From IMG/VR virus record IMGVR_UViG_2657245091_000011: a stretch of 4,210 nt of DNA; one strand, 5' to 3'. The notes beneath the pieces are model-generated. The model did not search any database. It had not been told where the DNA came from and saw nothing but the letters and a program-made list of their open reading frames with translations. Position numbers and translations under genes: made by a program. Position 1 is the first letter of the stretch. Each line of letters starts with the position of its first letter. This document shows, in pieces, positions 567-3,919 of this stretch. Source of the DNA: a virus (Duplodnaviria > Heunggongvirae > Uroviricota > Caudoviricetes).

Positions 567-799
567 AACCCCCCCCCATTTTCACAATCAGTAATCAGGA
601 TGGTTTTAGCCTCATTCAGTGCCATATCAGCACTAAATTGCATAACAGCCAGTGAGTGAGGAACGAAAGCCCCGGGATATTCTGTTTCGCTGGTGGCGTG
701 CTTATGTGCCCTGTCCGCGATAACAGAAATATCAATCAGCGCGTGCATCAGCGTTTTGATGGCTTCGGCGGCTGCGTCCGGTGTGGTTTTATTGTGCAT
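539..799 (-). CDS. hypothetical small protein (86 aa from ATG 799; the track's longer form starts at GTG 841)
   Basis: Within track ORF 539..841; internal ATG at 799..797 has AGGGGG 6 nt upstream, so preferred as the start; E. coli-like codon choice (CTG, GCG, GAA, ACC); C-terminal GGG codons are the G9 tract. Confidence 0.5.
   Translation of the reverse strand: MHNKTTPDAAAEAIKTLMHALIDISVIADRAHKHATSETEYPGAFVPHSLAVMQFSADMALNEAKTILITDCENGGGLCVMIVLIP
569..577. repeat. C9 (plus) / G9 (minus) homopolymer tract at the junction of two ORFs
   Basis: Nine consecutive C at 569-577, read directly from the sequence. Confidence 0.95.
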
Positions 800-989
800 A
801 GGTTTCCCCCTGGCGAATACGGGCGGCAAATACAGCAACACAACCGGACGGGCAAAGGTTACGCGCTTCGCGTTCCGTCCAGGCGGTTACGTGGATGATT
901 TGAGATTCTCCGGCACTCAGTGCCAGAAAACGCCACACAAAGGCAGTTTGTGTGTGCGCCAGACGTGGGGTATGCTGTGTTCCAGCCAT
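789..989 (-). CDS. hypothetical small protein (66 aa), first gene of the minus-strand operon
   Basis: ATG at 989..987 with AGGAG 8 nt upstream; same frame as the 3' end of the 318-aa track ORF; its stop lies 8 nt downstream of the next ORF's ATG (coupled). Confidence 0.4.
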   Translation of the reverse strand: MAGTQHTPRLAHTQTAFVWRFLALSAGESQIIHVTAWTEREARNLCPSGCVAVFAARIRQGETYAQ

Positions 990-1019: not shown

Positions 1020-1053
1020 ACGCCCCGCTACTGCCGCAAACAGTTCGGGGCGT
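1020..1053 (-). promoter_or_regulatory. GC-rich hairpin in the putative 5' leader of the minus-strand operon
   Basis: ACGCCCCG (1020-1027) pairs with CGGGGCGT (1046-1053) around an 18-nt loop; sits between the putative promoter (~1087-1115) and the first ORF; no U-tract follows on the minus strand. Confidence 0.3.
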
Positions 1054-1086: not shown

Positions 1087-1115
1087 AAATTAAATTCAAC
1101 TGAATCACAGGTCAA
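1087..1115 (-). promoter_or_regulatory. putative sigma70-type promoter for the minus-strand small-ORF operon
   Basis: On the minus strand, -35 TTGACC (plus 1110-1115), 17-bp spacer, -10 TAATTT (plus 1087-1092); hexamers identified by eye only. Confidence 0.3.
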
Positions 1116-1156
1116 GTGTTTTTTGTGATTCTTTTTTGTGTATACTGAATCACATC
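1097..1156. promoter_or_regulatory. operator-like triple repeat between divergent promoters
   Basis: ACTGAATCACA at 1099-1109 and 1144-1154 (11/11 identical), with an inverted copy TGTGATTC at 1124-1131; centres about 22-23 bp apart; the third copy overlaps the TATACT -10 (1141-1146) upstream of the RHH gene. Confidence 0.5.
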
Positions 1157-1176
1157 TTTTGTTTAGGAGAATGCAC

Positions 1177-1482
1177 ATGGCAAAAAACACTATCAACGAC
1201 AAATCAAAACAGATTTCAATTCGTATCCCACATGATGCTTTTGATGGCATGGAATCCGTAAAACTGGACGGCGAAAGCAACGCCGGATTCATAGTAACCG
1301 CCATGCGCGGGGAGATCGCCCGCCGCCAGGCAGAAGGAAGCAGTGAAAATCCTCTGATTTCTTCTCTCGATGCATTGGCGCAAGTGGAAAAAATTGGTAT
1401 TAAAGCTACGGAAGAACTCGGGCAACTTATCGCCATCGCACGCGAAGAACTCCAGCGCCGCAAGGCCAAAGAAGCGGAATAG
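1177..1482 (+). CDS. small DNA-binding protein, probably ribbon-helix-helix (CopG/Arc-like) transcriptional regulator (101 aa)
   Basis: AGGAGA 6 nt upstream of ATG 1177 (the track's GTG 1138 start is less likely); N-terminal KQISIRIPHDAFDGMESVKL...IVTAMRGEIARR fits a strand-helix-helix pattern by eye; intrinsic terminator immediately downstream. Confidence 0.6.
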   Translation: MAKNTINDKSKQISIRIPHDAFDGMESVKLDGESNAGFIVTAMRGEIARRQAEGSSENPLISSLDALAQVEKIGIKATEELGQLIAIAREELQRRKAKEAE

Positions 1483-1513: not shown

Positions 1514-1541
1514 GGCCACCGTGACAGGTGGCCTTTTCTTT
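1514..1541 (+). terminator. rho-independent terminator of the RHH gene
   Basis: GGCCACC / GGTGGCC 7-bp perfect stem, 6-nt loop, followed by TTTTCTTT. Confidence 0.7.
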
Positions 1542-1557
1542 GCCTGTTATCCGGCAA

Positions 1558-1588
1558 TTGTGGCGCTTCTTCACACAGTTGATATAAT
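1558..1588 (+). promoter_or_regulatory. extended -10 promoter (TGaTATAAT)
   Basis: TG at 1580-1581 and consensus TATAAT at 1583-1588; weak -35-like TTGTGG at 1558-1563; no protein-coding ORF downstream on this strand. Confidence 0.45.
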
Positions 1589-1594
1589 TCCCCT

Positions 1595-1667
1595 GCACTG
1601 ATCCAATTTTTCGCAGCAGGTTAATTGTTCGCAAGGGCGCTCTGGTAACGGGGCGCTTTTTGTTTTT
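1595..1667 (+). ncRNA. candidate small RNA (~70 nt) between the extended -10 promoter and an intrinsic terminator
   Basis: Promoter about 7 nt upstream; no ATG or SD in the interval; ends at a hairpin plus U-tract; possible 5' stem CCTGC (1592-1596) / GCAGG (1616-1620). Prediction only. Confidence 0.3.
1635..1667 (+). terminator. intrinsic terminator-like hairpin with GUAA tetraloop and U-tract
   Basis: GCGC 1637-1640 pairs with GCGC 1653-1656, extended by C:G and G:U pairs; loop GTAA 1645-1648; followed by TTTTTGTTTTT (1657-1667). Confidence 0.45.
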
Positions 1668-1779
1668 ACCCACCAGCACAATAAAAATCTTCATTTTCCA
1701 TTTTTGTAAAATTTCATGCTTTCCGGACGACTGGCCATATGTCATTTTTTAGCAGAAGATTTTGCCTTGCTGGTGGGTA
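1667..1779. repeat. 113-bp imperfect palindrome: 12-bp perfect inverted repeat plus 9-bp inner inverted repeat around an AT-rich 62-bp core
   Basis: TACCCACCAGCA (1667-1678) against TGCTGGTGGGTA (1768-1779); AAAATCTTC (1684-1692) against GAAGATTTT (1755-1763); 21 of about 26 arm positions pair. Confidence 0.6.
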
Positions 1780-1825
1780 GCTTCTCGGTTAACACGATGT
1801 ACCGTATAATCAGCACCGCGTGTGG

Positions 1826-2404
1826 TTACTGAATACGCTCACCAAAGTAAAACTCAGGCTGATATTCACGTATCAGCCTTTTTTCTTCTTCCTCCAGCTC
1901 ACGCTTTTTGCGCTTACATGCCTGTAGCTCCCTCCCCTTCTGACTAGCACTTAACTGATATTGCTCTTTACGGCGAGAAAAGTCCTGTAATGCGCCCCAC
2001 GGGATACCATAAGCCCCCGTTTTTCTGATTCCTGGTATCACATTCCTGAATACCCAGTTACTGAAACGATGGGCGAATGTGCCTTGCGTCGTTGCTTTGC
2101 GGCTACGGGCTATTAGTTTGTAGAAACCTGACTCAGAGATAATGCTCATATTCTGATTTCCTCCTGGGGTGTAAGTTAAATTTACTCCCTTTTCATCATC
2201 ATCAAGCATCTGCAACGCCGTACGCGAATTGGTCAGTTCCAGCGCAGCGCAGACATCCTTTGCAACAAACCACGGATCGCCGTTCAGATACACCACGCGA
2301 ACGTTCACACTATCAAAGCGCAGAACGACCAGATCACGAAAATCACAGATTTTTTTTACATGACGTGCGTCACCCTTGCCCGTCACGGCAATATTTTTAT
2401 TCAT
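1826..2404 (-). CDS. Bro-N domain protein (phage antirepressor-like N-terminal domain) with a charged C-terminal tail (192 aa)
   Basis: ORF in supplied track; N-terminal region shows Bro-N hallmarks by eye (VVYLNGDPWFVAKDVCAALELTN...DDDEK...SESGFYKLIARSRK...FSNWVFRNVIPGIRKTGAYG); GAGG about 10 nt upstream of the ATG. Confidence 0.75.
   Translation of the reverse strand: MNKNIAVTGKGDARHVKKICDFRDLVVLRFDSVNVRVVYLNGDPWFVAKDVCAALELTNSRTALQMLDDDEKGVNLTYTPGGNQNMSIISESGFYKLIARSRKATTQGTFAHRFSNWVFRNVIPGIRKTGAYGIPWGALQDFSRRKEQYQLSASQKGRELQACKRKKRELEEEEKRLIREYQPEFYFGERIQ
1856..1884 (+). terminator. plus-strand terminator-like hairpin embedded in the 3' end of the Bro-N gene
   Basis: GGCTGATA (1857-1864) / TATCAGCC (1871-1878) 8-bp perfect stem, 6-nt loop, then TTTTTT (1879-1884); the opposite orientation has an interrupted U-tract. 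Confidence 0.4.
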
Positions 2405-2463: not shown

Positions 2464-2667
2464 TTAGTGGGGATTGGCTTGTTCTCGTTGTTTATCTAAC
2501 CATGCTTCTACATCTCTACGGTGCCAGGTATGTCGTCGTCCAATTCTGAACGGCTGAGGAAAACCATTATTCTCATCTTTCCAGAAATTGATGAATGCAC
2601 TCATTGCTCCATATCGCAAGATTTTCATTACGTCTTTAGTAAATAAAATATCTTCATTGGTATTCAT
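2464..2667 (-). CDS. alpA: AlpA-family prophage regulatory protein / excisionase-like DNA-binding protein (67 aa; track start at 2688 gives 74 aa)
   Basis: C-terminal GFPQPFRIGRRHTWHRRDVEAWL matches the AlpA/Xis-like helix-turn-helix family pattern by eye; ATG at 2667 has GAGGAGG 8 nt upstream that overlaps the integrase stop codon; typical integrase-adjacent position. Confidence 0.75.
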   Translation of the reverse strand: MNTNEDILFTKDVMKILRYGAMSAFINFWKDENNGFPQPFRIGRRHTWHRRDVEAWLDKQREQANPH

Positions 2668-2680
2668 TTGCTGAACCTCC

Positions 2681-3919
2681 TCAACCATTTACTACTCTTA
2701 AACCTTTCATACCACCGGATCTATTAATTACCCCTTTTCTCGCATCATCAAAAAAATCACCGACCCATTGCATCATGATCTTACGCTGTTCTAGATAAAT
2801 AGTTCTATTATAAATATCTCTTATTTTATCACCACTTTTATGCGCCAATGCAGCCTCGATTACATCGGGGTTAAATCCCTCCTCATTTAAAAGCGTACTC
2901 CACATTGAACGAAAACCATGTAACGTTACAATCCCTTTGAACTTACTGGCAGCAATTGGGGTCTTGATAGTATTCCTCCCCATAGGCGCATCTTTTGTTC
3001 TGGAGGAAAAAAACACATAACGCCCTCTTTTTATTTCCTGCATTGTTCTGAGGATACTAATAGCCTGTGATGACAAGGGAACAACATGTTCACGATGGCA
3101 TTTCATTTTATGCGCGGGGATAATCCACAAGCCAGAATCAAAATCAATCTCTGACCACTCTGCTTTAATCGCCTCACCTGGCCTGACCATTGTCAATATC
3201 TGGAATAAAAGTGCATTATGAGCTATTTGATAGGTATGAGGCACACTATCCCACCAGCTCAGAAATTCAGGCAATCTTTCAACAGGTAGTGCTGCTAATG
3301 ATTTATTTTTCTTTCCTGTGAATGCAGTCTTTATCTTAAGTAATGGATTTGCTTTCAATGCTCCACAATTTACAGCATAATTCATAATTTCATTTAATCT
3401 TGATATTAATTTTTTTTGCAACGCATTCTTATCGGATACGGCATCCAGAGCATTAATAGCTACTGGTGCTGTAATTTTTTCTATACTGTACTTACCAAAG
3501 AAAGGAACAAGATATTTGTATACTTCATATTCGATATTATACAGCGTAGGTTTCCGCAATTCAGATCCCTTTTTAAAAGCGAACCATGCATTAGCAACAG
3601 CTTCAAATGTCTGTAGATTTTTTAGTGACATCTCAATTTTACGATTTTTCTTCTCCGTCACTGGATCAACTCCACGTGCAATCATTCGCCGAAGTTCATC
3701 ACGTACTTCCCGTGCTTCCGCGAGTGAGAATTCAGGAAAACGTCCTATCGTGTATGTCTGCCGTTTCTTCGTTATCGGATGGCTATAACGGAAACGCCAC
3801 ACTTTCCCACCGGCTTTACTCACATTCAGCAATAAACCGAACCCATCATAAACGGCATAGTCCTTTTCACGTGGTTTCATCCCCTTAACTTCAGTCACGG
3901 TTAATGGCTTTACCGACAT
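2681..3919 (-). CDS. int: site-specific tyrosine recombinase / phage integrase, P4/CP4-like family (412 aa)
   Basis: ORF in supplied track; N-terminal arm-binding-type region (KPLTVTEVKGMKPREKDYAVYDGFGLLLNVSKAGGKVWRFRY); C-terminal catalytic motifs HGFRSMW (H-x-x-R) and IRDIYNRTIYLEQRKIMMQW containing the likely catalytic Tyr; GAGGG 6 nt upstream of the ATG. Confidence 0.93.
   Translation of the reverse strand: MSVKPLTVTEVKGMKPREKDYAVYDGFGLLLNVSKAGGKVWRFRYSHPITKKRQTYTIGRFPEFSLAEAREVRDELRRMIARGVDPVTEKKNRKIEMSLKNLQTFEAVANAWFAFKKGSELRKPTLYNIEYEVYKYLVPFFGKYSIEKITAPVAINALDAVSDKNALQKKLISRLNEIMNYAVNCGALKANPLLKIKTAFTGKKNKSLAALPVERLPEFLSWWDSVPHTYQIAHNALLFQILTMVRPGEAIKAEWSEIDFDSGLWIIPAHKMKCHREHVVPLSSQAISILRTMQEIKRGRYVFFSSRTKDAPMGRNTIKTPIAASKFKGIVTLHGFRSMWSTLLNEEGFNPDVIEAALAHKSGDKIRDIYNRTIYLEQRKIMMQWVGDFFDDARKGVINRSGGMKGLRVVNG

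Follow-up and report, generated by a model that had tools for sequence, protein, structure and literature searches.

The gene at positions 1177-1482 of the window (the window being the whole 4,210-nucleotide stretch analysed here) most likely encodes a sequence-specific ribbon-helix-helix (RHH) DNA-binding protein, as judged from its structural model. The best reading of the locus is that this protein is probably an operator-specific repressor of its own gene and of the main operon of a Gram-negative PICI, a class of phage satellite. A role as operator-binding regulator of the divergent operon has strong comparative support at the level of sequence, from related loci in which the operators change together with the predicted DNA-reading strand. 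The gene and its annotated neighbours are arranged as follows, with the coding features taken from RefSeq.

789-989, minus strand: Icd-like gene, 66 aa, first in the operon under the leftward promoter P_L
Downstream of 789 and past the window's left end, minus strand: three small ORFs, then DUF4222
1165-1169, plus strand: Shine-Dalgarno sequence AGGAG, 7 nt 5' of the ATG, read from the sequence
1177-1482, plus strand: YlcI/YnfO-family gene, 101 aa (WP_044868574.1)
1514-1541, plus strand: intrinsic terminator found by hairpin scan, with a 7-bp GC-rich stem, a 6-nt loop and a T-run
1826-2404, minus strand: Bro-N protein
2464-2667, minus strand: AlpA-like HTH protein
2681-3919, minus strand: tyrosine integrase

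A preliminary description had taken 1177-1482 for a well-supported plus-strand gene for a 101-aa protein, divergent from a small-ORF operon and equipped with its own terminator, and this layout was borne out. The open reading frame has a ribosome-binding site and a RefSeq entry, is the sole plus-strand coding sequence annotated in the window, and diverges from the minus-strand operon headed by the Icd-like gene. The protein is a member of the NCBIfam family NF041551, a model of 42 N-terminal residues (65.7 bits against a cutoff of 30, E 2.8e-18, residues 9-50), and matched phrog_6522 over its full length (E 4e-57). We found 203 homologues at E<=1e-3, nearly all of ~101 aa, in Enterobacterales. 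The YlcI/YnfO-like family is small, comprising 74 clusters in a profile search of 1.84 billion representatives, and many of these clusters are proteins of ~60 aa that contain the N-terminal domain only. The long form was present in at least 654 of 5426 complete E. coli genomes, and tblastn searches with the long form and one short form gave no match in 50,697 phage records. The terminator hairpin is GGCCACC-N6-GGTGGCC plus TTTTCTTT; it is one of three plus-strand terminator-like hairpins 3' of the gene, the other two being located at 1633-1667 and 1856-1890. The next 285 nt past the terminator (window 1540-1825) are non-coding. In several relatives, including EcCICFT073, the region 3' of the YlcI-like gene contains an ORF of 57-80 aa.

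The window is identical to positions 2490681-2494890, reverse strand, of E. coli O45:H2 FWSEC0003 (NZ_CP031916.1). In this locus (L001, of which the window is 15001-19210), a satellite of ~10 kb (~9071-19083) splits the large-subunit terminase gene of a lambdoid prophage into two parts (7940-9070 and 19084-20088). Beyond the window, the next genes of the operon encode a RepA-type helicase, SSB and a protease/capsid fusion; the satellite has a ClpP-protease/capsid fusion gene of its own. Since the block lies inside the prophage terminase gene, it fits the helper-embedded PICIs reported by Tommasini et al. (PMC10111431).

Several further features of the element and its relatives were observed. 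Iteron-like direct repeats (CCCACTTTTT..., ~84 bp apart) are located between the helicase gene and the next ORF (L001 13207-13400), and may mark the satellite's replication origin. A C9 run (window 569-577) is found at the overlap of minus-strand ORFs 539-799 and 333-566, which match the two halves of one PHROG, phrog_2512 (1-77 and 78-154); a split gene, a frameshift and slippage-prone expression are all conceivable here, and the same split is seen in one relative, L014. The Rfam int-alpA RNA (RF02996) is present between int and alpA in four relatives (L003 9308-9376, L007 7461-7529, L008 8143-8211 and L013 5815-5884), whereas the window has no match to it at the gathering threshold. At E<=1, Rfam gave only chance-level matches in the window, with no C4 or isrK.

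The intergenic region 5' of the gene contains four short repeated half-sites and two putative promoters, listed below with strand given for the promoters and the leader hairpin.

1020-1053, minus strand: conserved GC-rich leader hairpin between P_L and the Icd-like start codon
1079-1085: half-site 1, TGTGATT, spanning the start-site region of P_L
1087-1115, minus strand: P_L, putative promoter of the Icd-like/replication operon, placed by inspection and by its position across loci
1103-1109: half-site 2, AATCACA, adjoining the P_L -35 and within its spacer
1124-1131: half-site 3, TGTGATTC, 5' of the -10 in the rightward promoter P_R
1141-1146, plus strand: TATACT, putative -10 of P_R, the gene's own promoter, placed by a five-genus alignment
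1147-1154: half-site 4, GAATCACA, directly downstream of the P_R -10

The repeats had been described as flanking the gene; all four half-sites are in fact upstream of it. They start 24, 21 and 24 bp apart, about two helical turns, and the two pairs bracket the -10 elements of two back-to-back promoters. Pairs of the form TGTGATT-N10-22-AATCACA are confined to these two places within the 34 kb examined (0 expected), with no further paired sites as targets in the helper prophage. Allowing at most one mismatch, GAATCACA has 10 matches in the window against 4.2 expected, a number reached in 0 of 200 shuffles. P_L consists of a -35 TTGACC (1115-1110), a 17-nt spacer and a -10 TAATTT (1092-1087), and the -35 of P_R is weak and T-rich. 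Because a sigma-70 consensus promoter scan returned 0 sites at the tool's threshold, below which both P_L and P_R score, their assignment rests on inspection and cross-locus conservation. On the operon strand, the best sigma-70 match was found at the P_L position in 11 of the 18 loci compared (score 8-11 of 12), and the position of the P_L -35 (TTGAC) is fixed across loci. TATACT is invariant in the five-genus alignment, and most loci have TAnnnT at -36 to -31. The leader hairpin, followed by a conserved TCTAACCA motif, is kept in the 18 loci with compensatory changes at two pairs; it matched no Rfam family.

A near-consensus -35 with half-sites over the promoter core is the layout expected of a promoter that must stay off. 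This layout at P_L, with its conserved position, argues against a rather unlikely alternative, and so does the Icd-like division inhibitor encoded first in the operon, whose constitutive expression would, to judge from P1 Icd, probably do harm. In this alternative, the protein is a Cro-like or fine-tuning regulator that binds the same operators and acts mainly after induction, turning P_L or P_R down or setting their level, while quiescence would depend on the absence of AlpA. That alternative draws on the good -10 and poor -35 of P_R and on the small size and predicted autoregulation of the YlcI-like protein, which recall Cro or Arc. It also draws on the model island EcCICFT073, which carries a YlcI-like homologue and in which AlpA is necessary and, when overexpressed, sufficient for induction (PMC6092414). 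The element studied here encodes an AlpA-like protein as well, so the YlcI-like protein may not be the primary switch. The preliminary description had proposed a master repressor of the element, and the layout that such a repressor should have is present here, namely divergence from the replication operon and operators over its promoter. However, the master regulator demonstrated by experiment in Gram-negative PICIs is the activator AlpA (PMC6092414), so that the YlcI-like protein can be called a plausible candidate for a master repressor and no more.

To compare the operators among relatives, we assembled 18 loci from 12 genera, 5 from a scan of genome contigs and more through exact-protein look-ups. 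In all loci examined, including EcCICFT073, the YlcI-like gene alone is on the opposite strand in the interval from int-alpA-(bro/antA) to the replication operon, which across the 18 loci contains Icd-like/Ash, small ORFs, DUF4222, a primase or helicase, and SSB. Half-sites are located at about -99, -75, -53 and -30 from the ATG in all 18 loci. Their sequence falls into at least 9 classes, and the class tracks residues 11-18 of the YlcI-like protein, the predicted DNA-reading strand, and does not track the remainder of the protein. The following pairings of residues 11-18 with half-sites were observed.

(K/R)QISIRIP: TGTGATT
QLTTVRVP: GTGTTTC
QSLTARIP: GTGTAAG
QIKNVR(V/I)P: GTGTG(C/T)AT
QQLNARFP: GGTATTCA
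QALKARVP (EcCICFT073): GGTGTGGCCCAC

Four TGTGATT/AATCACA sites were found in all six (K/R)QISIRIP loci (Escherichia, Serratia, Edwardsiella, Yersinia, Klebsiella and Salmonella) and in none of the 12 others. Within this class, across five genera, the half-sites and TATACT are invariant and the spacers and flanks vary. Over residues 29-101, a Citrobacter protein (L019) shares 99% identity with the window protein, yet its strand is QLTTVRVP. As predicted beforehand, its operators are GTGTTTC/GAAACAC, as in other QLTTVRVP loci. An alignment of the strand to Arc places positions 12, 14 and 16 opposite Arc residues 9, 11 and 13, the residues with which Arc contacts bases. R16 is conserved throughout the family, and a GTG core is common to all listed half-site classes except GGTATTCA, in which GTG stands directly 5' of only one half-site; positions 12 and 14 appear to vary along with the rest of the site.

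Since the operators adjoin the first 28 codons, the two can be inherited together, and co-inheritance of a single recombination block might account for some of the covariation. On another reading, the repeats would be the target of some other factor (from the host, the helper phage or another part of the island), and their match with the N-terminus would be co-inheritance only. We consider this very unlikely, even though one recombination block could carry both the repeats and the codons, which are only 20-100 bp apart. Against it, the half-sites of one class are invariant across five genera while spacers and flanks change, and the recombination joint in L019 falls just past the predicted DNA-reading segment. 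Moreover, the operator class tracks none of the neighbouring proteins compared (Icd-like, AlpA, Bro-N and integrase), and the predicted RHH fold is one that reads such short repeated sites.

The protein itself is predicted to be organized as follows.

Residues 1-10: N-terminal arm
Residues ~12-18: beta-strand
Residues 19-28: helix A
Residues 31-34: DGES loop
Residues 35-52: helix B
Residues 53-63: linker
Residues 64-100: long helix

An AF2 model of residues 1-58 (pLDDT 88.7) contains an extended segment followed by helices at 19-28 and 35-54. In the full-length AlphaFold model, the extended segment leads into helices 19-28 and 35-52; a linker of low confidence (53-63) then connects to a single long helix (64-100), which has a pLDDT of ~90 and a weak heptad pattern. 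The strand segment is extended and unpaired in this monomer model. These predicted elements form a beta-alpha-alpha fold of ~45 residues with an alternating polar/hydrophobic strand and a G-x-S/T/N turn opening helix B, as in RHH proteins. The family consensus has the same pattern, with R-x-P closing an alternating strand and a G-E-S turn ahead of helix B. In the strand K-Q-I-S-I-R-I-P, R16 and P18 are invariant in a 40-sequence alignment of close homologues, and R16 is nearly invariant family-wide; E33 in D-G-E-S (residues 31-34) is nearly invariant, and Gly74, inside the predicted C-terminal helix, is invariant. The best structural matches of the N-terminal domain were CopG, omega, CopA_SO, TacA and HicB. 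A Foldseek search of the PDB with the domain model gave no significant match.

Sequence searches gave no significant match to a curated RHH model or a solved RHH protein. Pfam returned no RHH family at E<=1 for the 101-aa protein, only a sub-threshold PSK_trans_fac match (E 0.019), and among relatives RHH_1 was matched weakly in 2 of 63. A phmmer search of the PDB gave 0 matches. The family profile retrieved only Arc from the PDB (E 0.8-1.6), with the strands in the expected register, and hhalign gave Arc 11% probability and Mnt nothing, with the Arc and Mnt sequences entered by hand. Since sequence methods do not show kinship with RHH proteins, it is the predicted structure and the motifs that carry the RHH assignment. 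The RHH-like N-terminus of the preliminary description is thus upheld by the predicted fold and the motifs and was not matched significantly by sequence, HHalign or Foldseek, and its helical C-terminal half can be specified as a flexible linker and one long helix. Unlike lambda CI/Cro-type regulators, the protein is not an HTH protein, its predicted fold being RHH. Of the suggested CI/Cro-like role, regulation of the divergent operon through operator binding is supported by covariation in the 18 loci.

The antitoxin-like role that had also been suggested found no counterpart in the locus: the terminator directly follows the gene, with no downstream ORF and no co-transcribed toxin gene, and a type II antitoxin was rejected on this account. 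Such a reading, in which an RHH antitoxin neutralises a toxin (Icd-like or other) through its C-terminal helix and binds DNA for autoregulation only, is most improbable, for while the weak match to the antitoxin family PSK_trans_fac and the annotation of the divergent gene as a cell-division inhibitor speak for it, the Icd-like gene is on the other strand at the head of the replication operon, which is not a toxin-antitoxin layout, near-identical Icd-like proteins pair with different N-terminal classes, the C-terminal helix is absent from many homologues, and the small ORFs 3' of the gene in some relatives matched no Pfam family and no toxin family.

If the protein is the operator-specific repressor that we favour, residues ~11-17 from both chains of a dimer would make up a two-stranded beta-ribbon that enters the major groove wherever one of the four half-sites lies, and RNA polymerase would be blocked at P_L and P_R while the sites are occupied. 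P_L would drive the main operon, with the Icd-like division inhibitor, the small ORFs, DUF4222, the helicase/primase, SSB and the capsid gene, and P_R, as the gene's own promoter, would make the protein autoregulated. The linker and the C-terminal helix (64-100) probably serve to tie together dimers that occupy different half-sites, or else to contact a partner protein. Derepression may come from leftward transcription that starts on the int-alpA-bro side and passes, antisense, through the repressor gene into the operon. Such transcripts could run through, since the terminators are on the plus strand and the minus strand has only one weak terminator-like hairpin (1879-1856, inside the 3' end of bro). 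They would be driven by AlpA or, in the helper-embedded case, by antiterminated late transcription of the helper; the Discussion of PMC10111431 treats the helper's late promoter in such an embedded arrangement.

By analogy, the closest known systems would be P22 Mnt/Arc in mechanism and layout and SaPI Stl in role. As in the immI region of P22, a small protein is predicted to read, with an N-terminal beta-ribbon, short repeated half-sites that overlap a promoter core; the gene is divergent from the operon it would control and probably autoregulated, and a Bro-N gene of 'anti-repressor' type is nearby. In Mnt, the RHH domain is followed by a C-terminal helix, and the helix of the window protein could likewise join dimers. 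Arc/Mnt half-sites are ~11 bp apart, against ~24 bp in the window, where four sites serve two back-to-back promoters. The element is a satellite and not a phage, and kinship with Arc (E ~1, 11% in hhalign) or Mnt (nothing) is not demonstrable from sequence. Among the structural matches, omega and CopG bind arrays of short repeats cooperatively. Unlike the loci of CopG, omega, CopA_SO, TacA and HicB, the window locus has no partner toxin, partition ATPase or plasmid replicon, and the C-terminal helix is not common to these proteins.

The E. coli K-12 proteins YlcI (lambdoid prophage DLP12) and YnfO (Qin), after which the family is named, share the NCBIfam N-terminal domain model, and YlcI reads as strand-helix-helix with a G-S-G-N loop, but they are short (YlcI, 64 aa), have no known function, and are without the C-terminal helix or the PICI context. 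The ylcI gene (L023 8252-8446) is divergent from nohD with ~390 bp between the genes, an interval that contains what we take, by eye, to be a lambda-like cos sequence. Stl proteins of SaPIs are larger HTH proteins with a fold unrelated to RHH. Stl/Rpr of Gram-positive PICIs are nevertheless alike in that one regulatory gene is divergent from the excision/replication operon of a phage-inducible island (PMC6092414), with a proposed role of keeping the island silent, and differ in that Gram-negative PICIs need the activator AlpA too. The P_L operon also has the gene order of the P4 left operon (PLE), with an Ash/Icd-like gene, small ORFs and a primase. P4 immunity is unlike the present system in that it works through an RNA causing early termination, with no divergent protein repressor (PMC10111431), and the window has only a short Icd-like gene and no C4/isrK match. 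In two relatives (L017 2436-2621 and L019 5433-5618), isrK and C4 matches (75-81 bits) are present in a long Ash-type first gene, which places a P4-like RNA immunity beside the RHH gene.

EcCICFT073 carries a 59-aa homologue (WP_000190587.1, C_RS30120) between alpA and the Icd-like gene, with the repeats in the same layout. The YlcI-like gene (L022 8474-8653) and the Icd-like gene (8853-9053) lie within NC_004431.1 1380473-1381052, and both carry late locus tags (C_RS30120 and C_RS30125), which suggests that they were added on re-annotation and may explain why the island was described as unidirectional. Fillol-Salom et al. (PMC6092414) described Gram-negative PICIs as transcribed unidirectionally, with AlpA as activator, and Tommasini et al. 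(PMC10111431) found all non-hypothetical genes of their island to be unidirectional. Our search of the literature on YlcI, YnfO, DUF3950 and a PICI repressor found no functional study; in a 2026 survey, the gene appears only as an accessory gene of cf-PICIs.

In molecular terms, the YlcI-like protein remains an ordinary type of regulator. What it offers is a conserved and overlooked opposite-strand gene at the boundary between int-alpA and the replication genes, a concrete candidate for a repressor of Gram-negative PICIs, for which none is described in the literature we searched. A broader proposal, which we put forward tentatively and hold to be possible but doubtful, is that the YlcI-like family is the missing global repressor of Gram-negative PICIs, EcCICFT073 included. 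Its 'immunity' classes, at least 9 of them, would be swapped as a cassette of the operators and the first ~28 codons, and induction would occur by convergent transcription (from AlpA or the helper's late transcript) or by a helper protein acting on the C-terminal helix. If this were true, Gram-negative PICIs would be controlled by a repressor like SaPIs, against their description as activator-only and unidirectional. The specificity classes would also predict which satellites cross-repress one another, with a bearing on satellite-helper biology and on engineered PICI vectors.
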